Shown: positions 1 to 10,577 of the stretch, one piece after another
How positions within the stretch are numbered: the stretch's first letter is position 1
Layout of the letters: each line of letters starts with the position of its first letter
Source: Bdellovibrionales bacterium
Lineage (GTDB): Bacteria > Bdellovibrionota > Bdellovibrionia > Bdellovibrionales > JAMPXM01
DNA: 10,577 bases
NCBI GenBank assembly: GCA_043739185.1
Contig: JAYUEN010000453.1
Span: forward strand, 1-10,577
Direction of reading: 5' to 3'
Position numbers and translations under genes: made by a program
The notes under the pieces: model-generated
The model's database searches: none
What the model was told of the DNA's origin: nothing
What the model saw: only the letters and a program-made list of their open reading frames with translations

Positions 1-2210
1 GAGATACTCTCTCCTAGCCAAGGCCTATAATAAAGCAAATCTCTTTGACCGCTAACGGCTCTAAAGAAAGTGATTGTTTTCTTTAGTTCAGAGCGAAACT
101 CAACTAAATAGTCATTCGCCTGCTTTTGAGGCAAATTACTTTGCTGTAAATAAATTTCAAAAATAGACAGATCAATCTTTTTAAGCGTAAAGCCAAGTTG
201 CTTTATATAAGATTGAAAGAAGTCGCTCTTTTTAAAATCCACGCATAGTCTAGATTTTTCTTTTTGAGATAGTAAGTTCCAGGCGGAACCTGCGCCCCAC
301 CAGGTTGGGAACAATATTCGAGTTTGAGTCCAGCACAGGATCCAGGGAATGGCTCTTAAGGACATCACCGAATGAATCTTACCGCGTTTGGTTGGGCGCG
401 AGCCAATCTTAATGGCTGAGAGATAGGAATAAGGAGTCACCTCTGCAATCATAGCTAAAAACTCACTTGAATTGACTTTGGCTTGGTAAAATTTCGACAT
501 CGATTTGCCAAATGCTTGAAGAGACTCTGGGACCGAAATAGGTTTGCGATTCAATCGGAGATTGTTTTCTGCCAGAGTGCCAATTTTTTCGAGTTGGCCG
601 CGAACAATTTCAGGAGTACTGAGGGTTCTTTCAACCATTTCACCTTGTATTGTGACTTTATATATCCAAAACGCACTTGCTGGCCACCAAGAGGTTTGTT
701 CTGAAATAGAGCCGCCGCCACGATCTACACTTCCTCCGGAGCCATGAAAAAAGACCGGGGTTACTTTAGCCTTTCTACAGAGCCGATCAATACCTTGAAT
801 GGCTTTGGCAATTTCAATTCGGCTTGCCAATACGCCGATTTCTTTCGAGGAGTCAGAATAGCCAAGCATGACTTCAAGTTGCTGGTTCCAATTTGTTTTG
901 ATGGCTCGACGTAATTTTTTATCCTTAAGAATGGATGTTACAATTTGAACAGAGTCTACGAGTGCTTGTTTTTGTTCAAAAAGTGGCACGATTGGTAATC
1001 GGGTACTACCCAAAAATCTTTGCATTAAAATGCGTGCGGCTCGAATATCATCAATAGAGTGCGTTTGACTAATGACGAAACTTCTGGCGTACCATCTGGG
1101 ATCGCCGCCCTTTGCAATATTTTTCATGACCGAAAACATTTTTGAAATCGCAAACTTAGGATTTTGAGATGCGGCAACTACGAGATCAGCGGACTCTCTA
1201 AACTCAAGCGGCACCACGAGCCCAGGGAAAATACTAAAAACCCTTTCAATCATTGAAAGTTCAGTCGACAATCCAAAATGATTTTTAATTTGATGTTTTA
1301 GAATATGAGTTAACTGAAGTTTCAGTTTTTTTACTTTTGCGGCATCTCTACTTTTGACGTTTTTAAGTTTTAAAAGATTTTTTCGAAGGGCCAAAATGTT
1401 TTTAAGTACGAGCCTTCGTTGTTCTAAATTTTTTGTGCCCGTTAAGGTCACGTTCGAATAAGATCTAAAACCTTCAAGATTATCGAGAATATATTTGATT
1501 AATAAACCGCGGGATATTTGAAAGCTTTGAAGCATGACTTTGGAATGAACGCCGGGATGGCCGTCTTTGTCACCCCCTACCCAGGTGTGAATATAGGTGG
1601 AATAGAGTTCGGGACCCGCTCGCAATATCACATCGAGGATTTCACGTTTTAAAAGAATCGAGAAAATATGTTCTGCTTCGTCACGCACATTTGGTTTTCG
1701 GTGACGAGTGATCGGAGTATGCCAAGCAATTTTGAGCAATGTCTTTAAAAATTCTGTTTGTGATTCAATGCCGACTTCAAGAGCACGTAAAAGAAGTTCA
1801 CCAATTTTTTGAAACAATTGAATGTTTTGTGGATTTCTAGCTTCAGTGGGATGGGCCGTTAAAACATAGACTATTGATCTTGGTTTTGTCTTAATTTCGA
1901 CTTTTTGATGTTGTTTTAAAGAATAGGTTCGATAGGCATTTTCGCACGCGTTCATCAATTCGAGCATCATTGAAAAAGCATGAGCAGTAATTCGCAAATT
2001 TGAAATGGGTGAGTCCACTAAATTTTGAAAGGTTTCATTTAATATACGGACTTTTTTTTGGTCATTTGCATTTCTTAAAAGAGTCATTCGATGTCGGATG
2101 GCTTCAATGAGTTCAAAATCGTGGGCAGAAGCTTCTTCGAAAATCACTTGTCCCAAAATTGCCACAGATTCATTTACTAAGCTTTTCAAGCGTTCCGGAA
2201 GGTGAGACAT
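1..2210 (-). CDS. ppc: Phosphoenolpyruvate carboxylase (bacterial/plant type), compact and divergent; 3' end lies outside the window
   Basis: Manual translation from ATG at 2210 (MSHLPERLKSLVNESVAILGQVI..., preceded by CAGGAAGAAA) gives ordered PEPC motifs in one frame: VLTAHPTE (His codon 1853-1851), TWVGGDKDGHP, LEFRES, IVPLFE, VMLGYSDSSKE, FFHGSGGSVDRGGG, TIQGE, IGSRPTKR, LRAIPWILCWTQTR and LLYYRPWLGESI at the window edge. 736 codons lie in the window. Confidence 0.95.
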   Translation of the reverse strand, partial: MSHLPERLKSLVNESVAILGQVIFEEASAHDFELIEAIRHRMTLLRNANDQKKVRILNETFQNLVDSPISNLRITAHAFSMMLELMNACENAYRTYSLKQHQKVEIKTKPRSIVYVLTAHPTEARNPQNIQLFQKIGELLLRALEVGIESQTEFLKTLLKIAWHTPITRHRKPNVRDEAEHIFSILLKREILDVILRAGPELYSTYIHTWVGGDKDGHPGVHSKVMLQSFQISRGLLIKYILDNLEGFRSYSNVTLTGTKNLEQRRLVLKNILALRKNLLKLKNVKSRDAAKVKKLKLQLTHILKHQIKNHFGLSTELSMIERVFSIFPGLVVPLEFRESADLVVAASQNPKFAISKMFSVMKNIAKGGDPRWYARSFVISQTHSIDDIRAARILMQRFLGSTRLPIVPLFEQKQALVDSVQIVTSILKDKKLRRAIKTNWNQQLEVMLGYSDSSKEIGVLASRIEIAKAIQGIDRLCRKAKVTPVFFHGSGGSVDRGGGSISEQTSWWPASAFWIYKVTIQGEMVERTLSTPEIVRGQLEKIGTLAENNLRLNRKPISVPESLQAFGKSMSKFYQAKVNSSEFLAMIAEVTPYSYLSAIKIGSRPTKRGKIHSVMSLRAIPWILCWTQTRILFPTWWGAGSAWNLLSQKEKSRLCVDFKKSDFFQSYIKQLGFTLKKIDLSIFEIYLQQSNLPQKQANDYLVEFRSELKKTITFFRAVSGQRDLLYYRPWLGESI

Positions 2211-2422
2211 TTTCTTCCTGTAGATTTGGCTGCAAAGGGCCAAGTGAAGTGTTGCAGAAAAATTCTTAATTTAAACATTAAAATTAGAGCTCTAGATTAA
2301 TATAGCGGTGTTTGGATCAGCAAGAATATTATGAGAAATCAGCCTGATAATGCATTAAAGCAAGCACTAAGTTCAGTCGAGTTAAATGCATTGAGACGAT
2401 TGAAACATTGTGAAATGCGAGG

Positions 2423-3292
2423 CTAAATGGTTTCGACCAAATCGATGATTGAAAAGGGCGAGTGGGTCGAAATTCGATTTGCTAAAATCTTAAGAGTGGC
2501 AACCGGCCCAATATTTACAAACTCCTTGATGCCTAAGGATTTATTCATCCATTGAAAGCTCTCTTGCCAGCGCACTTGACCTAAAATGTTTTGTTTCAAG
2601 TCATCTTGAATATTCTCGCTATTCAAAACTGTTCCGGGAGAAACCGAAGAGGTGATTGGGTAAATAGGTGGCGAAAAAGCTCGAGCTTTAAATACTTTCT
2701 CTAATTTGTCGTAAGCGGGCTTCATAAGAGGCGAATGCAGTGGATAGGGTAAAATAATTTGTTGTTTTGAGGCCCTGGCAATGCGATTTTCAGATTGCCA
2801 TTTTAGTAAATCCGCTTGTTTGCCTGCTATTAAACAATCATGATCAGTTTGATCCATGGCCATAAAAAGACCATACGCTAAGAGTCCTTCGTGAAATTCA
2901 ATCCCACGTTTCAACTCCGTTTTAATATGAATGATCGATCCCGGCTCGATATCCTTTAGGCCTTTAGTGAATTTTTCAATACCAACTAAGGCACCTTCTA
3001 TATCCATGGCCTTTGCACAAATGAGCTTTGCAAGATCGCCCATTGAGCAGCCAACCAATATTAGCTTACTTGAATTTTGTTTTAAAAAAGCTTGAAAAAG
3101 TCCAACTTGAGTAAGAACTGAAGCTGCTAAAGCAGGAAAGGGTTCAACATACATTTTTTCAAAGATTATATCCAAGCCTTGAAATAAGCCAAATTGTTCA
3201 AGTAGCTTTTGCACCTCTGGCACTGCCAAAGCTGAAAGTGTAAGTGGCATATCTGTCATGGCGTCAGCTCCGGCAAACATTACAGCTCTCAT
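2423..3292 (-). CDS. FabD/malonyl-CoA:ACP transacylase-fold acyltransferase, non-canonical (289 aa)
   Basis: GxSxG nucleophile elbow (GCSMG, 3052-3038), YPLHSPLM (catalytic His), VRWQES and FVNIGP match FabD/AT motifs. Start moved from GTG 3406 to ATG 3292 because GGAG lies just upstream and MRAVMFAG aligns with the FabD N-terminal strand. Confidence 0.8.
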   Translation of the reverse strand: MRAVMFAGADAMTDMPLTLSALAVPEVQKLLEQFGLFQGLDIIFEKMYVEPFPALAASVLTQVGLFQAFLKQNSSKLILVGCSMGDLAKLICAKAMDIEGALVGIEKFTKGLKDIEPGSIIHIKTELKRGIEFHEGLLAYGLFMAMDQTDHDCLIAGKQADLLKWQSENRIARASKQQIILPYPLHSPLMKPAYDKLEKVFKARAFSPPIYPITSSVSPGTVLNSENIQDDLKQNILGQVRWQESFQWMNKSLGIKEFVNIGPVATLKILANRISTHSPFSIIDLVETI

Positions 3293-3449
3293 AAATACTC
3301 CAAAATTATTGAACAATGGATTTAAAGTGCAAGCCTTAGCCTCAAACCTAAAATATGAATTGTCTAGGTTTTCTCTCGGCACGCTGCTGCAATAGCTTTG
3401 TGCCACTTCAACGGCTTTCGTCCGTGTTCGATGAGTTCACGAGGTTTTA

Positions 3450-3465
3450 TGGCTAGCTCCTTGCA
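3450..3465 (+). promoter_or_regulatory. Putative sigma54 (-24/-12) promoter for the lipoprotein gene
   Basis: TGGCTAGCTCCTTGCA: GG at 3451-3452 and GC at 3463-3464 with exact GG-N10-GC spacing and TTGCA at -12. The predicted start site (~3476) lies just before the Shine-Dalgarno sequence at ~3480-3485 and ATG 3492. Confidence 0.6.
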
Positions 3466-3491
3466 CTTCGCATTCGACCGGAGGTTCTAAT

Positions 3492-4970
3492 ATGAATAAA
3501 ATTACTTTAACCAATATTTCGCTCACCTTAATCCTAGCTTTCGGACTCTTTTCTTGTTCGAAAGAAAAAGCCGGTCCGGTAATGGACAGTTTTCATGTCG
3601 ATACGCCCGTGGTCTTAGCTCGCTTCAAAGTGCAATCTGGGCCTGGCCTAACAGAGCCACTCAAAATGAATCTCGATTCCAAAATGAAGGAGACACTTTA
3701 TCCATCGAGTGTGGTTGAAATTGAAGCTTTAAAAAATAATGATTTTGTTACAAATCCAATTTCACTCAATGTCATAGGGAACTGTCAAACGGGGTCAGCC
3801 ATTTACAATCTCCGAAAGATATTTTCAAATATAAAAAGTTTTCAACTCATCAGCTTATTTGATTTTAATATGGTTGTAGAGAATTCTCGTTCAAACTTAA
3901 CCAGTACTTGTTCGATGAATTTTGAATTTATTAATAAAAATGGTTCTACCGAAGTTTTTCGGTTCAAAGACATTCCAATCGGACCACTCATGAAAGAAGA
4001 TGTTGCGAATATCAATTTGGTTTCACATGACGAGCAGGGCGCGGAGTTTGATTCTCGACTTCCGATAGTTGGGGAGAATCGAAATGCCGGCGTGAAGTAT
4101 CCGCTGACTACCCAAACTCAAATAATTTTAAATTCACCTGCGGAGCCTCAATTAATGCTCGTCTGTGAGAATTTTATCAGTCAATTGAGCAGTAAGAAAC
4201 AAACCTATTATGCGTTATCGCAATTTGATTCTGCACGCCTTATTAAATTTAAAAACCTCTCTTCTTCATTCGGTGAAACAGATCCTCGAATAGCCATACC
4301 TGCTCAAGATTGTCGGATAATGACTGAATCAGCTGGGCCCGATTATCAACTGAAGTATAGTAGGCAATTTCGACTGGTTACAAAAAGCCCTGAATTGAAG
4401 GTTAAATTGAAATCAAATACAAAACTTTTTACGAATATTTCTAAAACGGGGGCCATTCAAGCGGGAAGTTCACCTGAAATTTTTCATATAGAAGTTTTTA
4501 ATCCTACCAATTCACCAATGACAATTGCCTTCGGCCAAATGAAAATGCAAGTGCTTGCAAGCCGTAACCCCGGTCAGAAGGAATATCGAGAAGGTTTCAC
4601 CCAGGATATGAGCATTCAAATTGAAGGGGGGCAATTTATTGGTCAAGATCCCGTTCTCGGAAAAGTCATCACGATATCTGCAATGGCCCATCTCAATGTT
4701 AGTTATTTACTTCCATTTGCAAACACTTGCCGTATTATTCAAATTGATGCTACTAACTTTGTGCCTCTGCCTAACTACGAAGAAATTTGGGCTCATAACC
4801 TTTCAAATTTAAGCATTATTCAGCTGGCGAATCCGGTGATCGATAACCTCACTTTTCATCCTGAATATTACAAAGTTTTTTATCAAACTGAAGAAGGGGC
4901 CATACCCGGAGCTAGTTGGACTACAGAAATCGGAAGTGGTTTGAATTGCGAAAACTTTCACTCTCAATAG
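3492..4970 (+). CDS. Large hypothetical lipoprotein (492 aa), apparently beta-rich with 6 Cys in the mature region besides the lipidated Cys
   Basis: Long ORF, GGAGGT RBS, basic N-terminus, hydrophobic stretch and lipobox LFS-C22. No recognisable catalytic motif. Confidence 0.8.
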   Translation: MNKITLTNISLTLILAFGLFSCSKEKAGPVMDSFHVDTPVVLARFKVQSGPGLTEPLKMNLDSKMKETLYPSSVVEIEALKNNDFVTNPISLNVIGNCQTGSAIYNLRKIFSNIKSFQLISLFDFNMVVENSRSNLTSTCSMNFEFINKNGSTEVFRFKDIPIGPLMKEDVANINLVSHDEQGAEFDSRLPIVGENRNAGVKYPLTTQTQIILNSPAEPQLMLVCENFISQLSSKKQTYYALSQFDSARLIKFKNLSSSFGETDPRIAIPAQDCRIMTESAGPDYQLKYSRQFRLVTKSPELKVKLKSNTKLFTNISKTGAIQAGSSPEIFHIEVFNPTNSPMTIAFGQMKMQVLASRNPGQKEYREGFTQDMSIQIEGGQFIGQDPVLGKVITISAMAHLNVSYLLPFANTCRIIQIDATNFVPLPNYEEIWAHNLSNLSIIQLANPVIDNLTFHPEYYKVFYQTEEGAIPGASWTTEIGSGLNCENFHSQ

Positions 4971-5072
4971 AGTCATCAAGCAAGTAGTAATTTTCGAAAG
5001 GTTTTCACTTGAAGGTGTGGGATTCTTATTTCCCATTGAAGTTTTTTGAATAAGATAAGTTGGGAGAGACAT

Positions 5073-5250
5073 TAGACCTCTTGCATATTAATCATGAGAT
5101 AAAATGAAGGAATCCGCTTCAGATCAAGGATTGAAAGTAAAAAAAGGCGAAGGATACAGAAAATGTATTTTGAGTCTTATTTTTGCCTGAAGACGCGGAG
5201 CTGGAGCGGATTACAAGGCTTTAGCCACGATTTAATATGCAAGAGGTTTA
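5073..5250. repeat. ~178-bp nested-palindromic element / MITE-like repeat, copy 1
   Basis: Terminal inverted repeats TAGACCTCTTGCATATTAA ... TTAATATGCAAGAGGTTTA, internal inverted repeats AATCCGCTTCAG/CTGGAGCGGATT and a central hairpin. About 90% identical to the reverse complement of 9381-9559. Confidence 0.92.
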
Positions 5251-5563
5251 TTGGTGCAAATTGGGGTCTCGCCCCAGAAGAGTCAGGTTCTTTGTTAGTG
5301 TAAACCCCTTCGTCAAATATCTAGCTGAAGTAAAATAGCATTTATTAAGGTCAGGTTGAAATTCGGCTAAATATAGATCGTCGTGATTTTGAACCAATTT
5401 GCTTTTTTGAAAGTAAATTTCAAAATTGAAAAGTTAAACTTACTTTGAAGCGCAGCCAAGTTGGCTTATAATTCAAACAGATTTTGGAACTGGCAGATTG
5501 CCTTTTTTTACTAGCCGCAAAGAACTTAGTCTCTCAATTTGAAAAAATATGTGATCAAAAAAA

Positions 5564-6154
5564 TTATGAGGCATTTTTCGCGCTATAATATGCTCGAGTA
5601 TACTGATAGCCAGAAACGATGCTCAAAGCAGCGCTGATCCAAAGCAGACTGATTCCCATATCGTGAGTGGGAAATCCAAAGATTGGGTTGTGAATGAGTA
5701 GGGCGGGAATTCCGACCATCTGCATGGCGGTCTTCCATTTGCCAGTATTTTTAGCAGAAATAATGACGCCGTCGGCAGCGGCAACTGATCTGATTCCACC
5801 AATAAAAATATCTCGTAGCAAAATTATGATCACCATAACAGGATGCACTCGACCAATAGGCAAGAGCATAATGAGCACACTTGAGACTAAGACTTTGTCA
5901 GCAATAGGGTCCATGAATTTACCCATGGTGCTTTCGGCTTGGTATTTGCGGGCGAGTGCTCCGTCAAACCAATCTGTAATACTGGCTATGGTAAATACTA
6001 TGGCCGCTCCACAGCCATTCCAATCCGTATACGGAAAGCTTAAAATAACAACGAGGATAGGACTCATAGCTATGCGCGCCCAAGTGAGCCACATTGGGAG
6101 CTGCTTTTTCCATTTAGGAATGATTTGCGGACTTTCTTCTTGGAGCATCTGCAT
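5564..6154 (-). CDS. pgsA: CDP-diacylglycerol--glycerol-3-phosphate 3-phosphatidyltransferase
   Basis: CDP-alcohol phosphotransferase signature DWFDGALARKYQAESTMGKFMDPIADK, plus LPMWLTWARI, LRDIFIGGIR, GKWKTAMQM and several TM helices. Start uncertain (ATG 6154 or 6148; track gives GTG 6196). Confidence 0.93.
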   Translation of the reverse strand: MQMLQEESPQIIPKWKKQLPMWLTWARIAMSPILVVILSFPYTDWNGCGAAIVFTIASITDWFDGALARKYQAESTMGKFMDPIADKVLVSSVLIMLLPIGRVHPVMVIIILLRDIFIGGIRSVAAADGVIISAKNTGKWKTAMQMVGIPALLIHNPIFGFPTHDMGISLLWISAALSIVSGYQYTRAYYSAKNAS

Positions 6155-6174
6155 ACTTAATCTAGACTCAGTTG

Positions 6175-6912
6175 ATGCTGTCAAGCACGAAGGCAAACTT
6201 AAGAAGGCGTCTAAGATTTTACGCGCATTTATTTAACGCAATTTTGCTTACTTCAGGCATTGCCTTGGCGGGAACCAAAGAAAAAGCCTTTTCACAATTT
6301 CCTCCCGAGCCCCTCAAATTTATTCGTGACAAAAAAGATTTAAAGCTCCTTTTGCAAGAAGAGCCCTCGGCTCAAGATATGCCGTTTTGGCGAAGTAAAA
6401 AAAACATTCACCGCAAGATGCTCGAAGAACGCTTGATCCCAGTATCTGTGAACCAATCTAAACTATCCGGAGGACTCATTGCCTTTGATGTTAAAGGGGC
6501 AGGCATAGTTCATTCGGCGCGAGAAGGTGCTTTTAAGACAGCTCAAGAATACGCAAAATTAACGCAAGTAAGCTCGCATTTTAAGAGTGCTTACTATGAT
6601 GAGAAAAATAAACAGCTGTTCTTGGCGGTTGAAGCTTTGGGCTATGAGACTCGAATGATCTTGGCAATCGATCTGGTTGCTCAGAAAAAGCGAAGTGAAA
6701 TTCAGTTCGAAGTGGTCTGGGGTGAGCTTAAAGGAATGACCGGAGCCATTGGCTTTGAGAATTTAAATGACGAGAGCTGTGAGGTATCGATTTTGTCTCA
6801 CTATCAGGCGACACAGTTTCCGCTGCCTAAGATTTTCATGGGCTTTGCATTTGAAGTACTCACCCAAAAGGTGGCCGAAAAAATGCGTAGTTTTATTGAG
6901 AGTGAGAGATAG
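6175..6912 (+). CDS. Hypothetical exported protein, possible START/SRPBCC-like fold
   Basis: ~245-aa ORF with a basic N-region and hydrophobic segment ending in IALA (signal-peptide-like). C-terminal pattern IQFEVVWGELKGMTG...LPKIFMGFAFEVLTQKVAEKMRSFIE resembles SRPBCC domains. Start codon uncertain. Confidence 0.6.
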   Translation: MLSSTKANLRRRLRFYAHLFNAILLTSGIALAGTKEKAFSQFPPEPLKFIRDKKDLKLLLQEEPSAQDMPFWRSKKNIHRKMLEERLIPVSVNQSKLSGGLIAFDVKGAGIVHSAREGAFKTAQEYAKLTQVSSHFKSAYYDEKNKQLFLAVEALGYETRMILAIDLVAQKKRSEIQFEVVWGELKGMTGAIGFENLNDESCEVSILSHYQATQFPLPKIFMGFAFEVLTQKVAEKMRSFIESER

Positions 6913-7016
6913 GTACGTTTTATTTGGTCGAAGACGATAGTATGATGTTTGCAGACTCAGATCTGAAAACAGATTGAGCGGACGCGAAGTTCAGTCTAGA
7001 AAGTGAATAATTGTGG

Positions 7017-7043
7017 CCGAATACTTCCGAATATGTTTGAATA
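7017..7043 (+). promoter_or_regulatory. Three GAATA-core direct repeats at exact 10-bp spacing upstream of the kinase-SLT operon (possible operator)
   Basis: CCGAATA (7017-7023), CCGAATA (7027-7033), TTGAATA (7037-7043). Confidence 0.35.
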
Positions 7044-7088
7044 TCTCTAAATTGAGTTGAGCTCTTAAGATTGGCATAGGTTTGTTCT

Positions 7089-7673
7089 ATGGATCTAATT
7101 AAAAAAGTAGAGCGATTTATAATTACTGGGGAAACAGTCGGTGATCAAAAAGAGGGTCTTTGGTTTTGTGAAGATCGTGGTCAGGTAAAGGGACGCTTGC
7201 CCCATTGGTTCAAATTACTTGAGGCTTGGACCCGAGATAATAATCAAGCATCACTAATTTCAGCAATTTTAGGTGAATTAGCAAACAATAGTTTTGATCA
7301 TAATCTTGGGAAATGGAAGGACACTCCTGGATGTATGATCGGGCTATCAATTCAATCAAAGGTAATACTCTTGGTAGCTGCCGATCGCGGCCAAGGAATT
7401 ATTTCTTCACTTGGCAAGCAATTGCCCGAAAAGACAACTCCTAAAGAAGTAATGAGAGTGGCGTTTGAAGAGAGAATTTCTGGCCGCGCTCCTGAACAGC
7501 GAGGAAATGGTCTCAAATTTATAAGGGAAGAAATGGATGGGCAGCATCATCGACTGTTTTGTCTTTCTGCTAATACAATTTATCAGAAAGGTGAATTGTC
7601 TTTTGACCTAAACTTAAAGGCTTTAAAGAAAGCGCCAGGAACTTTATCAGTCATTGAATGGAGCTTGTTATGA
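7089..7673 (+). CDS. Stand-alone GHKL/HATPase_c protein, RsbW/SpoIIAB-like putative Ser kinase (194 aa)
   Basis: N-box GELANNSFDH, G1 ADRGQGI, G2 RGNGL and C-terminal PGT strand. No TM segment, no evident HisKA H-box. Directly upstream of a STAS-like domain. Confidence 0.85.
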   Translation: MDLIKKVERFIITGETVGDQKEGLWFCEDRGQVKGRLPHWFKLLEAWTRDNNQASLISAILGELANNSFDHNLGKWKDTPGCMIGLSIQSKVILLVAADRGQGIISSLGKQLPEKTTPKEVMRVAFEERISGRAPEQRGNGLKFIREEMDGQHHRLFCLSANTIYQKGELSFDLNLKALKKAPGTLSVIEWSLL

Positions 7674-8728
7674 AGTTTGCCCAAAAGACCTCCAAGAGGA
7701 TCATTAAAAAGGCCGCCAAAGTGAAAGCCAAAAAGAGCATACTGAAAATCGCAAAATATGGCCAATTTTTATCATCACGTCCGGAAGGTCGAGAAGCGGC
7801 CCTAGCGGCATGGGCATATCACGAAAATTTGAAAAAGAGTTCGACGGTCAAATTCGATTTCACGGGGATTATTGTGATGACGCCTTCGTGGTTGTCTGAA
7901 TTTGTAAATACACTTAGGGACTGTGGTATAAAAAAAATTGAATATCTGACGGAACAAAATCTTTCAGTTCGGCGATCAATTCAAGCTGTTCTTGCGGACG
8001 ATCAAAATCATAAAGTTCATCCGTGGCGTTTGTGTCCCACAGGTCAGCACTGGGTCCGGAAACACCCCCTTCGCGTGGCACCCAGTAAGAAACATCCCGA
8101 CGGTGAAGTCACGATCAGAAATGGCCATTGTGCAAGTAATCCGTCAGGTAAAGATCAACTATATCCGGACGAGATTAAGCAAATTTCCTCATCATTTTTT
8201 TCAAACTTGAGCAATGTTCCATGCCCAAGTAAGCTTGGGTTTGAGGATGGTGCAAAGTTTGATTCTTTAATCGCAGGTTGGGTGCAATACTGGAATGAGG
8301 TACTTATTCCAAAAGAATTTCTCGATCCAAATCTAGTAAAGGCACTTATCGCATCTGAGTCGAGCTTTAATGCAATTAAACTCGCAAGCAAAAAAGATTC
8401 AAATAGCGCCCGCGGATTAATGCAAATTTTAAACAAAACTCGAAAAATTATTGCGGATGAGTCAGGTGAGTTGAAAAATCATTACGTAACCGCAAACAAA
8501 AAGGATTTAGACGATCCAAATGTTAATATTTGTGCGGGCGTTCGTTGGCTTTTTAGAAAAAAAGATTTAGCTTCTTTAAAATTAAAGCGACCAGCTACTT
8601 GGGTTGAAGCTGCTGAAGAATATAAAGGTGATCTTAAGGGAATAATCAAAAAAGACAAGAAGTCCGTAAAGGATGTTGAACCATTTCTAAAACTTTTGAA
8701 GGAGCTTCAGGAATGCGCGAAAAAATAG
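7670..8728 (+). CDS. Fusion protein: Lys-rich tail + STAS-like (DUF4325-type) domain + Cys/His motif + lytic transglycosylase (SLT, GH23-like) domain
   Basis: YGQFLSSRPEGREA...VKFDFTGIIVMTPSWLSEFV (DUF4325-like), HPWRLCPTGQHWVRKH...GHC, then LDPNLVKALIASESSFN (catalytic Glu 8357-8359), ARGLMQI and LDDPNVNICAGVRWL (SLT motifs). Start set to ATG 7670 because of GGAG at 7660-7663 and the ATGA overlap with the upstream stop. Confidence 0.85.
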   Translation: MKFAQKTSKRIIKKAAKVKAKKSILKIAKYGQFLSSRPEGREAALAAWAYHENLKKSSTVKFDFTGIIVMTPSWLSEFVNTLRDCGIKKIEYLTEQNLSVRRSIQAVLADDQNHKVHPWRLCPTGQHWVRKHPLRVAPSKKHPDGEVTIRNGHCASNPSGKDQLYPDEIKQISSSFFSNLSNVPCPSKLGFEDGAKFDSLIAGWVQYWNEVLIPKEFLDPNLVKALIASESSFNAIKLASKKDSNSARGLMQILNKTRKIIADESGELKNHYVTANKKDLDDPNVNICAGVRWLFRKKDLASLKLKRPATWVEAAEEYKGDLKGIIKKDKKSVKDVEPFLKLLKELQECAKK

Positions 8729-9369
8729 AGCTTTTTAGGAATATATTTTTCTTAGCAATTTCGGCGATGATTTCAATAGCGAGTGCGAATTCTACACATC
8801 TTAATAAAATTAAATCTATTTATCCCTATGGTCTCATTGGTGATGATTTCGGGATTTTGAATTGGGAGGATTTGGCAGTCAATACCTGCTTTGCCTCAAT
8901 GACACCATTTTCTGAAGATAAAAGTATGGCCTATTCTTATTGGCAATGCTTCTTAAAGGCGGACGTAAAAGTAGAATGTGAGAGTTTGGGCTATGAACCC
9001 AGCGTAAAAATGGAATTGGCTTATTTTAATATTAATGTAAAAAACAAAATAGAAAACAATTTAGAAAAGAATTTGGGATTTAAAACTGGAGAGAGAGTTG
9101 CCGAGCAGTCTTACCTTGCCCGAGATCCGATGGATATTCGCTCTTGTAAAGAACTCTTAAAGAGTTACAAAAGAAAAACTCAAATACAAAAGTACGTTTG
9201 CATTTCAGGTTCTTTTAATAGCTTGGAATTACTTGAAAATGGCCAAAGGGAAGTCAATTGGGTTTTTGACAAGTTCAAAAACAAGAAGGGATGCGAAGCT
9301 TATAAAAGTGAATGTGAGTTAGAAGTTCCCTATAAAAAAAGCTGCATTGTTCCGAAAACCAAATTTTAA
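8713..9369 (+). CDS. Hypothetical exported Cys-rich protein (218 aa), candidate SLT inhibitor/immunity or partner
   Basis: Sec-type signal peptide (MREKIELFRNIFFLAISAMISIASA|N), 8 Cys, GGAG at 8701-8704, 16-bp overlap with the SLT gene. The function is inference. Confidence 0.75.
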   Translation: MREKIELFRNIFFLAISAMISIASANSTHLNKIKSIYPYGLIGDDFGILNWEDLAVNTCFASMTPFSEDKSMAYSYWQCFLKADVKVECESLGYEPSVKMELAYFNINVKNKIENNLEKNLGFKTGERVAEQSYLARDPMDIRSCKELLKSYKRKTQIQKYVCISGSFNSLELLENGQREVNWVFDKFKNKKGCEAYKSECELEVPYKKSCIVPKTKF

Positions 9370-9380
9370 AATGAGTTTAA

Positions 9381-9559
9381 TAGACCTCTTGCATATTAAG
9401 TCGCGGCCAAAGCCTTGTAATCCGCTCCATCCCTGCGTCTTCAGGTAAAAATAAGACTCAAAATACATTTTATGTATTCTTCGCCTTATTTTTACCTTCA
9501 ACCCTTGATATGGAGCGGATTCCTTCATTTTATCTCGCGATTAATATGCAAGACGTCTA
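9381..9559. repeat. ~179-bp nested-palindromic element / MITE-like repeat, copy 2 (inverted relative to copy 1)
   Basis: TAGACCTCTTGCATATTAA ... TTAATATGCAAGACGTCTA termini, AATCCGCTCCAT/ATGGAGCGGATT inner stem, AGGTAAAAATAAG/CTTATTTTTACCT central stem. Confidence 0.92.
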
Positions 9560-9674
9560 ATAGTTTCAAGTTTTTTAAACTTCATAAGGTGAAAACTAAG
9601 CAAGCCCAATCAAAAAGCTAGCTGGGGCCTAAGGCTCTGATTTAGTTATCTTTTAAGCCCAACCGAAGATTCTG

Positions 9675-9703
9675 TTGCAATTGTATATACTTGTATATAC
9701 AAT
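9675..9703 (+). promoter_or_regulatory. Sigma70 promoter overlapped by a tandem/palindromic operator
   Basis: TTGCAA (9675-9680), 17-bp spacer, TACAAT (9698-9703). TTGTATATAC occurs twice in tandem (9681-9700) and TTGTATATACAA (9691-9702) is a perfect palindrome. Confidence 0.75.
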
Positions 9704-9710
9704 ACAAGAT

Positions 9711-10184
9711 ATGCTGATTTATGAGTTGATTGATCATTTTGACCGAGCGAAGCTTAAATATGCAATTGTCGGAGGCTATGCGCTTGCCCTACATGGTCTG
9801 GTGCGGGCGACGATGGATGTTGATTTTGTTTTGTTTTTAAAGCTTGAGGATTATGAGTTAGCTGAAAAAACTTTGTTAAAAATGGGTCTTCAATCTCGTC
9901 TTCCGATTCGAGCACAAGAAGTTTTTAAAATGCGAAAAGAGTATATTGAAAAGAGAAATTTGATTGCGTGGTCTTTTGTAGACTTTAAGGATCCTTCTAA
10001 GCAAGTTGATATTTTGATAAACAAAGATTTAAAGGACCTAAAAACTGAAAAAATTTCAGTGGGCGGTCGAAAAATTTCAGTTGTGAGCTTACGGCAATTA
10101 TTGCAAATGAAAATTGAGACTGGCCGGCCTCAGGATTTGATCGACATTGAAAACATAAAGGCTAAATTAAATGAAAAAAACTAA
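9711..10184 (+). CDS. Pol-beta-superfamily nucleotidyltransferase (DUF6036/AbiEii-like small NTase, 157 aa)
   Basis: YAIVGGYALALHGLVRATMDVDF (GG...RxTxDxD) and MKIETGRPQDLIDI (K...R.xD..D). Start set to ATG 9711 because the track's TTG 9675 is the -35 box. Confidence 0.85.
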   Translation: MLIYELIDHFDRAKLKYAIVGGYALALHGLVRATMDVDFVLFLKLEDYELAEKTLLKMGLQSRLPIRAQEVFKMRKEYIEKRNLIAWSFVDFKDPSKQVDILINKDLKDLKTEKISVGGRKISVVSLRQLLQMKIETGRPQDLIDIENIKAKLNEKN

Positions 10185-10413
10185 ATCTGGCGAGAGTATT
10201 GTGACGCCAAGAATTTCTCCGTCCGATGCACTACGCTTTCTTGAAGATATGAGGTTGTTAACAACTGAAATCGATCGGCCGAGAGTGTCGATTAGTTTGA
10301 GGGTTCCGGCAAATTTACTTAATGCTTTAAAAACTAAAGCTAAGTCTGAGGGTAAAAAATATCAATCAATGATGCTTGAGATACTGCGCAAATCGCTTCG
10401 CGAAAGCTTATGA
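10171..10413 (+). CDS. CopG/BrnA-like ribbon-helix-helix protein, putative antitoxin/autorepressor (80 aa)
   Basis: C-terminal ISLRVPANLLNALKTKAKSEGKKYQSMMLEILR matches the CopG/BrnA antitoxin RHH pattern (ISLR...K..A...G..YQ). 14-bp overlap with the NTase gene. Confidence 0.85.
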   Translation: MKKTKSGESIVTPRISPSDALRFLEDMRLLTTEIDRPRVSISLRVPANLLNALKTKAKSEGKKYQSMMLEILRKSLRESL

Positions 10414-10577
10414 ACTGCGCGTTTTTAATTTGCGAGCCGTGCCACCAGGCGCTTTGCCGCTGACTTCATAGCCAATGGCCTTGAGCTCTTTTTCATCGAC
10501 ATTTAAAAAGCGCGACATTTCGCGAAAGTCATCCGGTTTTTGCCAGGCTGATAACTTCGGAAAATCGATGGTTCCGA
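10408..10577 (-). CDS. C-terminal fragment of an unknown protein entering from the right edge
   Basis: Open frame ...GTIDFPKLSAWQKPDDFREMSRFLNVDEKELKAIGYEVSGKAPGGTARKLKTRSS* ending at TAA 10410-10408, overlapping the RHH gene stop convergently. Confidence 0.55.
   Translation of the reverse strand, partial: GTIDFPKLSAWQKPDDFREMSRFLNVDEKELKAIGYEVSGKAPGGTARKLKTRSS

Follow-up and report, generated by a model that had tools for sequence, protein, structure and literature searches.

The window analysed here is the whole of a 10,577-nt stretch of DNA from a Bdellovibrionales bacterium (GCA_043739185.1, contig JAYUEN010000453.1, positions 1-10,577 of the forward strand). It contains a gene at 7670-8728 in which a STAS domain, a Cys/His hairpin and a family-1 lytic transglycosylase (SLT) domain follow one another within a single open frame of 352 amino acids (aa). 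This fusion gene is preceded by a GHKL (anti-sigma-type) ATPase/kinase-like gene (7089-7673, 194 aa) and followed by a partner gene with a hydrophobic N-terminus (8713-9369, 218 aa), all three on the forward strand. The open reading frame (ORF) listing opens the fusion frame at 7658; the ATG at 7670, preceded by GGAG at 7660-7663, overlaps the stop of the kinase-like gene (ATGA, replaced by GTGA at the syntenic locus L099), and the partner gene overlaps the SLT stop by 16 nt.

An AlphaFold2 model of the fusion protein based on 116 sequences has a mean pLDDT of 92.8 and a whole-chain pTM of 0.81, and shows a STAS fold, a four-strand Cys/His hairpin and a family-1 lytic transglycosylase in that order. 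The SLT domain is recognised by Pfam (35.7 bits, cut-off 21.3, residues 217-294), and DUF4325 (PF14213) reaches 17.8 bits, below its cut-off of 23, which the relatives P0125 (24.2), P0202 (24.9), P0209 (23.9), P0168 (31.6) and P0182 (36.3) exceed. A first-pass annotation made from the sequence alone had described one uninterrupted ORF with a DUF4325-like and an SLT domain, and the open frame, the Pfam match and the STAS model agree with that description; the hairpin between the two domains (residues ~116-185) was overlooked. The N-terminus lacks a hydrophobic core, as had also been noted: its best 10-residue hydropathy within the first 45 aa is 0.44, compared with 2.76 in the downstream partner, and no RR (Tat-type) pair occurs in the first 35 aa.

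The STAS-SLT fusion is real. Read contigs of runs X1 and X2, both of which are possibly the source of the window, cover 6900-9464 unbroken with zero and one differences, while runs X3 and X4 carry a variant substituted at 7993, 7994, 8011 and 8041 that contains no stop when translated in frame by hand; read support for the junction thus comes from four runs of a single study. In run X2's contig, and in that single contig, a G>A change at position 8043 alters the well-conserved Gly125. An assembly artefact or a one-off read-through might be suspected with a stop at the matching place in syntenic L099 and with a relative, P0122, that ends at KSHP, yet it is ruled out by the junction-spanning contigs and by at least 11 further fusion proteins, and we give it next to no credence. 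No internal start for a separate enzyme was found in frame from 7900 to the conserved HPWR motif, and the Met at residue 70 is not conserved.

The STAS-fold (DUF4325-like) domain spans residues ~21-113 (7730-8008). Residues 19-114 align with SpoIIAA (1tid_B) at Z 7.2 (rmsd 3.2, 87 aligned residues), with further matches to STAS chains 7ch8_K (6.6), 3ny7_A (6.5) and 6jhk_A (6.3), RsbS (Z 6.3) among them; these scores are middling, yet several STAS chains concur. Stand-alone STAS relatives are 46-79% identical to it, and among 84 codons compared with L099 there are 35 synonymous versus 14 non-synonymous differences. The candidate phospho-acceptor serine placed by the first-pass annotation at 7886-7888 is Ser73 of a TPSW motif; it begins a modelled helix (residues 72-84), is invariant in 31 of 31 aligned STAS domains and is retained in all 12 fusions. 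No sequence match of the STAS alignment to SpoIIAA that would equate it with Ser58 was found, and searches of the STAS and kinase alignments against the sequences of solved structures returned nothing meaningful. The kinase-like protein has no Pfam match; its Atlas structure neighbours are HATPase_c domains (TM 0.81), and its ExxNNxxDH, DRGxG and GNGL motifs are invariant in five of five aligned sequences. With ~50 residues ahead of the GHKL motifs it has neither an N-terminal HTH nor a STAS part. Many stand-alone kinase relatives (~259 aa; most of loci L120, L126, L128-L140, L143 and L144) have an N-terminal winged-helix domain that is missing here. The STAS domain is the likely substrate of the overlapping GHKL kinase-like gene. 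A START/polyketide-cyclase-like gene (6172-6912, weak Pfam match) is syntenic with the kinase-STAS pair in L099, and the pair therefore predates the split of the two genomes.

Recurrence and age of the fusion

Full-length relatives are found beyond the window. At least five other proteins cover 93-94% of the query at 50-65% identity (among the best 120 of 670 homologs), and a profile search yielded at least six further STAS-SLT proteins among 150 listed representatives of 50%-identity clusters. This amounts to at least 12 fusion proteins including the query, with STAS parts 17-66% identical. In a tree from a short alignment the fused STAS domains scatter to several places among stand-alone ones, suggesting that the fusion likely arose several times, the number of origins being uncertain because P0026, L083/P0160, P0209, P0168 and P0182 sit on long branches in these 90-residue STAS trees. 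The annotation's view that two separately mobile modules (kinase plus STAS, and SLT plus partner) were joined at ...DDQNHKVHPW is supported.

The further suggestion that this joining was recent does not stand. Full-length relatives share 59-65% identity, and in the tree the unfused STAS of the syntenic locus (P0121/L099) falls within the fused clade (support 99/96 and 100/95), which argues that the fusion is old and that the SLT part was most likely lost at L099. The stand-alone STAS there is 79% identical to that of the query and stops where the query's HPW begins (L099 and L148, the latter from the same-genus genome G003, are the same DNA and were counted once). A search for an SLT remnant behind it gave a 34-residue match at 29% identity from one of five queries, which we did not accept. 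P0122, whose STAS falls in the sister group of the fused clade, runs only to KSHP, where the core motif starts, and is either a broken fusion or cut by a contig end. The fused state is a minority, with related STAS domains in 27 of 401 phylum genomes and fusions in two of those, and the core was found in 0 of 38 metagenome STAS loci, many of which are short. Where a fusion has DNA context (two of two), the kinase-like gene is intact and adjacent. The spacing from STAS to HPW is identical in P0002-P0005, and in P0005 a STAS of the same clade sits on a different core.

The SLT core, its partners and its neighbourhood

The part of the protein that follows the STAS domain (residues 116-352, hereafter the core) is carried, often as several copies, by 103 of 301 phylum genomes and is represented in 78 of 170 genera, and nearly all of 79 core loci belong to Bdellovibrionota or unclassified Deltaproteobacteria. 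The core was present in none of 18 genomes of genus g41, those listed being mostly closed, and this absence from well-sequenced isolates could explain why the SLT family has escaped study. The family is apparently undescribed, and we found no account of the STAS-SLT fusion or of the SLT cassette within the open-access literature. A phage or plasmid origin gained no support, with no match among 72,556 plasmid and 50,697 phage records, none in viral contigs (a pattern-limited search) and only weak generic matches in PHROG.

The core begins with the Cys/His beta-hairpin domain (8015-8224; HPWRxCPxGxHxVxxH...HCxxNP), four strands with pLDDT >90 that form a possible metal or disulfide site. Its C122, H127, H132, H153 and C154 are kept in 84, 81, 87, 86 and 85 of 92 cores, respectively; PHROG and the Atlas contain no match to the hairpin, and the ESM Atlas gave no usable match for residues 114-215. 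The family-1-like lytic transglycosylase domain follows at 8225-8725, with catalytic Glu230 at 8357-8359. Residues 186-352 match MltF (Z 13.4, rmsd 3.2, 139 aligned residues), MltC (12.6), MltE (12.3) and Slt, and also GH124 cellulase (11.6), DslA (6ta9, 9.1), Tse3 (8.6) and chitinases. The ES of the glutamate motif and GLMQ align with their counterparts in MltE, and E230, G249, Q252 and K319 are invariant in all 92 cores (S231 in 91). The ASESSFN, GLMQI and EEYKG motifs read by the first-pass annotation are all present. The usual motif III consensus is AYNxG, which the core does not match. The deviant motif III (YKG, 8621-8629) is, however, not peculiar to the fusion gene: the position holds Tyr or Phe at 318 in 90, Lys319 in 92 and Gly320 in 73 of 92 cores, and the invariance of Lys319 marks YKG as a family trait and not as decay.

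The annotation had seen a topological paradox in joining a cytoplasmic regulatory domain to an enzyme with a periplasmic substrate. That the fusion creates one is not supported. The whole SLT family lacks hydrophobic N-termini: a hydropathy window of at least 2.0 occurs in only four of 120 family proteins, all of them nucleotidyltransferase fusions. The accompanying idea that the enzyme needs non-Sec access to the wall is supported, and no support was obtained for a cytoplasmic glycan substrate. What stand-alone cores carry instead is a basic tail: 74 of 82 have a net charge of at least +6 over their first 20 residues, compared with 23 of 1225 ORFs from the window's own genome (G000). The query has such a tail through a 60-nt in-frame insertion at 7680-7739 (net +9 in 20 residues), which the contigs of each of the four runs contain, which L099 and P0002-P0005 lack and which has no close copy elsewhere in G000. 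The query has regained a cationic tail by insertion, a single case and only a hint of selection on the tail. In one subfamily (L009, L011, L076:2003-2881, P0156, P0166, P0176 and P0281) a cationic amphipathic helix replaces the Lys-rich tail, with hydrophobic moments of 0.5-0.7 in P0156, P0166, P0176 and P0281.

The gene after the core belongs to one of four recurring families in 66 of 68 loci (F0 52, F1 9, F31 3 and F35 2), and in 60 of 68 it shares the core's strand and lies within 30 nt of it; behind a distant core subfamily stands F8, a lipoprotein-like family. Hydrophobic N-termini are the rule in these families (F0 62/67, F1 18/20 and F8 7/7), and F0 and F1 are unrelated (hhalign probability 1.5). 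The partner in the window is a Cys-rich F0 member and a candidate periplasmic inhibitor with a weak OB-like fold (model pLDDT 88.9, best Z 5.1) and no match in Pfam, NCBIfam, PHROG or PADLOC. A complex prediction of core (residues 114-352) and partner (residues 26-218) scored 0.01, which is uninformative either way. Core and partner form a single reading frame in P0167, P0186, P0288 and P0291, where the hydrophobic segment of the partner lies internally.

Upstream, the gene directly before the core has a toxin-antitoxin (TA) or defence-type Pfam match in 36 of 70 cases scanned (loci L031-L107, hand-scored; three genes, copies of one hydrolase, were omitted). The same scoring gave 11 of 52 first genes behind the partner (16 if Bro-N is included) and 10 of 74 genes at least 2.8 kb away (74 scanned of 77 picked); Fisher tests against both sets gave 1e-6 and 7e-4, with kin among the loci not independent. 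Thirty of the 36 share the strand of the core, and 16 of those thirty lie within 50 nt of it. The types include ParE/RelE-linked HTH, HigB, HicB, MazF, PIN, BrnT, CopG, AbiEii, HEPN, Fic, Zeta-like, AlbA, DUF2442, RhuM and AAA-DUF4143 genes, and such a range of unrelated families points to many events despite the kinship of loci. In-frame N-termini on the core are correspondingly varied (STAS, MNT, HEPN, AbiEii, DUF6036, YhcG, a Zeta-associated helix and the amphipathic helix) and swap repeatedly along the core tree; wherever DNA context exists, it is the final gene of the operon upstream that has become fused. A tRNA or tmRNA lies in 33 of 79 core loci, compared with a mean of 2.4 of 79 (maximum 8) for random G000 windows, a baseline resting on only 30 called tRNA/tmRNA genes, and some loci contain integrases or recombinases.

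A mostly Bacteriovoracaceae clade (L028, L086-L098, L100 and L102:6285-7289) has an MNT-sized N-terminus of 100-110 aa with no nucleotidyltransferase Pfam match; it mostly lacks a HEPN neighbour and branches with true MNT fusions, so that the segment may be a captured domain in decay. In L007, L010, L026, L067, L068 and 12 cluster representatives the core is fused to a short helical N-terminus bearing an L..FP motif, which stands behind Zeta-like AAA genes in four of the five loci, has no Pfam match and is possibly an unnamed antitoxin.

An imperfect-palindrome, MITE-like repeat of 183 bp lies just 3' of the partner (9379-9561), with an inverted second copy at 5071-5252 (90% identical), more copies on contigs C34, C99, C372 and C188, and two end-like matches 3.7 kb apart on C277. 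It folds as a DNA hairpin with z -10.9, read contigs break at it, and it was not found in loci from genomes other than G000. As an integron attC site it was rejected: AAC...GTT ends are lacking (judged by eye against the consensus) and other cassette loci do not have it. The repeat is not part of the cassette. Directly past it are a DUF6036-type nucleotidyltransferase gene (9675-10184) and a CopG/BrnA-like ribbon-helix-helix gene (10171-10413), likely a TA pair by their Pfam matches. PADLOC gave no match for five window proteins, and Rfam a single chance-level match in the window. A promoter scan of 6800-9700 returned three sites, fewer than in shuffled sequence.

A proposed stored wall toxin and the alternatives

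The reading that we prefer, with a probability of roughly 0.4, is that the cassette encodes a cell-wall toxin that is stored in the cytoplasm, induced by stress and paired with a periplasmic immunity partner. The cassette would borrow the promoter and translation start of an upstream stress operon, here kinase-STAS, and would consequently be made whenever that operon is induced. While in the cytoplasm the enzyme would do no harm; access to peptidoglycan would come only with membrane failure, leakage or lysis, the way out that pesticin and endolysins also take, whereupon the polycationic tail may aid crossing of the outer membranes of neighbours, or the enzyme may lyse its own damaged cell. The predicted secreted partner would inhibit it in the periplasm as an immunity protein and so likely spare the producer. 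Fusion would chiefly couple expression: STAS would continue to serve the kinase as substrate, and the enzyme itself would not need to be controlled directly. Pesticin offers a precedent for a stored, signal-less wall enzyme: in the published passages it mostly stays cytoplasmic, its immunity protein Pim is periplasmic, and Sec export renders it lytic (PMC3390615). Cationic or amphipathic segments, likewise, are described as letting some endolysins traverse the outer membrane (PMC12170589).

Several observations weigh against this proposal. Closely related cores swap unrelated partners (F0, F1 and F35 within one clade), a poor fit to strict cognate immunity; F35 (L086, L091 and L100) is a secreted GH18-like protein with an enzyme fold, F0 is convergent with the core instead of co-transcribed, tail-to-tail with overlapping 3' ends, in three MNT-fused loci (L072, L085 and L102), and F0 itself is a single-linkage cluster that is possibly mixed. 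Since P0002-P0005 lack the cationic tail, it is dispensable in fusions. The invariant lysine of motif III suggests that the core may act on a different substrate, and the Cys pairs, if disulfides, would mean that the protein folds outside the cytoplasm. We identified no holin or lysis gene and no receptor-binding or translocation domain, in searches none of which was aimed at holins. Finally, 34 of 70 upstream genes have no TA-type match, TA genes and tRNA sites mark mobile islets regardless of cargo, and the window itself has no tRNA.

In an unlikely alternative, SLT and partner are a non-toxic envelope-remodelling or VirB1-like transfer module carried by small tRNA-site islets, the TA genes are addiction modules, and fusions arose through insertion or stop loss as accidents that were tolerated. 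The tRNA enrichment, the integrases or recombinases and the patchy, multi-copy distribution speak for it, as do MNT fusions that keep the entire Lys-rich tail as a linker (L046 and P0011) and the MNT-sized N-terminus of the Bacteriovoracaceae clade that Pfam does not match to nucleotidyltransferases. The TA bias is, however, directional (36/70 upstream versus 11/52 downstream), conjugation genes do not recur among neighbour families, the plasmid and phage records hold no copy, and the polycationic tail and swapping secreted partners are left unexplained. A secreted effector is another reading: a dedicated non-Sec apparatus (type IV, Tad or flagellar) would deliver the protein to prey or rival predators, with tail or hairpin as export signal and partner as immunity. 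This would suit the effector-immunity gene order, the predatory phylum and the very unusual conserved basic tail, and a VirB4-like protein (PF03135) is present in 13 of 61 relatives, including a weak G000 match on another contig. Yet VirB4-like matches occur in only 6 of the 19 genomes where the core match is strong versus 7 of 42 without (hand count), never on the same contig among the matches listed; N-termini made of large folded TA domains would be unusual cargo, and the absence of the core from all 18 g41 genomes argues that it is not a core predation tool. In the 61 genomes searched, a type VI secretion system (T6SS) is excluded as the route, none of them having the sheath family PF05943 (the E. 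coli control was positive). We judge export of this kind improbable. Still less probable is a cytoplasmic function, in which tail and hairpin would be nucleic-acid or metal binders and the substrate of the SLT fold would be a non-wall glycan or recycled wall fragments. The lack of an export signal, the variant motif III, a fold common to GH124 cellulase (Z 11.6) and chitinases, and the partner's weak OB-like fold lean that way, while the best structure and profile matches are wall lytic transglycosylases and the tight coupling to a predicted secreted partner would go unexplained.

Two further proposals give the STAS domain, or the cassette, a more direct role. In CapK/CapS and VapK/VapS, phosphorylation of a STAS serine is described as freeing a repressor dimer or the VapC toxin (Chambers et al., EMBO J 2026, PMC13373217), and by analogy with VapS-VapC the fused STAS might keep the SLT inactive, oligomerised or retained until the kinase phosphorylates Ser73. 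Repeated likely origins with the serine kept in 12 of 12 fusions, the fixed STAS-to-HPW spacing of P0002-P0005, a kinase gene adjacent in two of two, the whole-chain pTM of 0.81 and the different outputs that GHKL-STAS pairs control in the published CapKS and VapKSC accounts (PMC13373217) are all in its favour. Against it, MNT, HEPN, AbiEii, DUF6036 and plain tails are found on the same core as well, and a fused domain that is always the last gene of its operon makes fusion look positional. Only 2 of the 27 STAS-bearing genomes have it, the 38 metagenome loci (many short) have no core, a sister STAS lost its SLT and P0005 pairs a same-clade STAS with a different core. With the substrate across the membrane, cytoplasmic gating would moreover be unneeded for safety, and we hold such a switch to be rather doubtful. 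An undescribed plug-in lysis effector of Bdellovibrionota seems to us similarly doubtful: here a lytic transglycosylase with a polycationic tail, whose periplasmic immunity proteins are interchangeable, would dock onto the end of many different TA and stress operons, yielding envelope lysis or a released bacteriocin, and in this lineage the STAS fusion would make it a single-chain, kinase-gated lysin, a third CapK/VapK-type output.

If the stored-toxin reading is true, one modular cassette would tie TA and kinase-STAS stress circuits to wall lysis in about one third of sampled Bdellovibrionota genomes. It would also amount to a naturally occurring lysin with a polycationic tail and new inhibitor families of its own, and would give the GHKL-STAS switch described in 2026 a third output. 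How predatory bacteria that lack a T6SS fight phage or rival predators would have a testable answer as well, and all steps of the proposal are open to testing in laboratory E. coli using three small genes.

Comparison with known systems

The closest regulatory parallels are VapKSC and CapKS, published as pairs of a GHKL kinase and a STAS protein reused with different outputs in stress and immune loci; the window shares with them the order of a GHKL kinase-like gene and then a STAS domain whose serine is invariant, on a SpoIIAA-like fold. The differences place the kinase-STAS-SLT locus outside both. CapK is described as HTH-STAS-GHKL, unlike the 194-aa kinase of the window, which has no HTH and no room for a STAS part, so that the ssDNA-sensing groove of CapK is not evident in it; the kinase of VapKSC, too, is described as activated by ssDNA at a STAS-GHKL groove. 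CapS is a STAS-wHTH repressor, whereas the STAS domain here leads into a hairpin and a wall hydrolase. The third gene of VapKSC encodes a VapC/PIN nuclease, and Pfam and NCBIfam give no PIN match in fusion or partner; in the wider literature on DUF4325, it is described as coupled to PIN.4. The words 'transglycosylase', 'SLT' and 'peptidoglycan' do not occur in the main text of PMC13373217, nor does 'transglycosylase' in its supplementary files other than 11 and 14, and passages of PMC12419801 are unrelated to the cassette.

Among wall enzymes, the core resembles the family-1 lytic transglycosylases MltF, Slt, MltC and MltE (PF01464) in fold (Z 12-13), catalytic glutamate motif and GLMQ. It differs from them in having no signal peptide or lipobox, in YKG with its invariant lysine, in the extra Cys/His hairpin, and in being accessory and mobile instead of housekeeping. 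Two wall-cutting enzymes are known from the same phylum, Bdellovibrio DslA/Bd0314 (6ta9, Z 9.1) and Bd3285. DslA shares the fold, a distant match (profile E 0.41), and Bd3285 is described as an MltA-type lipoprotein with a signal peptide (PMC10127604), unlike the core; no link of either to TA operons appeared in our searches or in the published passages. Phage SLT endolysins and engineered polycation-fused lysins, as presented in PMC12170589, have in common with the core a wall hydrolase made in the cytoplasm and a strongly cationic terminal peptide. The core, in contrast, has no relatives that we found in phage or viral collections, no recognised holin (not specifically searched) and a dedicated secreted partner.

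The pairs pesticin-Pim (PMC3390615) and Tse3-Tsi3 come nearest in arrangement, each a signal-less lysozyme-fold wall enzyme beside a periplasmic partner, with pesticin reported to be mostly retained in the cytoplasm. The cassette departs from them in an SLT instead of a T4-lysozyme fold, in the lack of a recognised receptor-binding or translocation domain, in the absence of a T6SS from 61 genomes, and in its position in chromosomal islets behind TA operons, with immunity putative here. Taken this way, the SLT cassette would be a variant on the theme of a signal-less wall toxin with a periplasmic partner, plugged into the stress operons of a predatory phylum and, in this window, standing behind a CapK/VapK-like switch.

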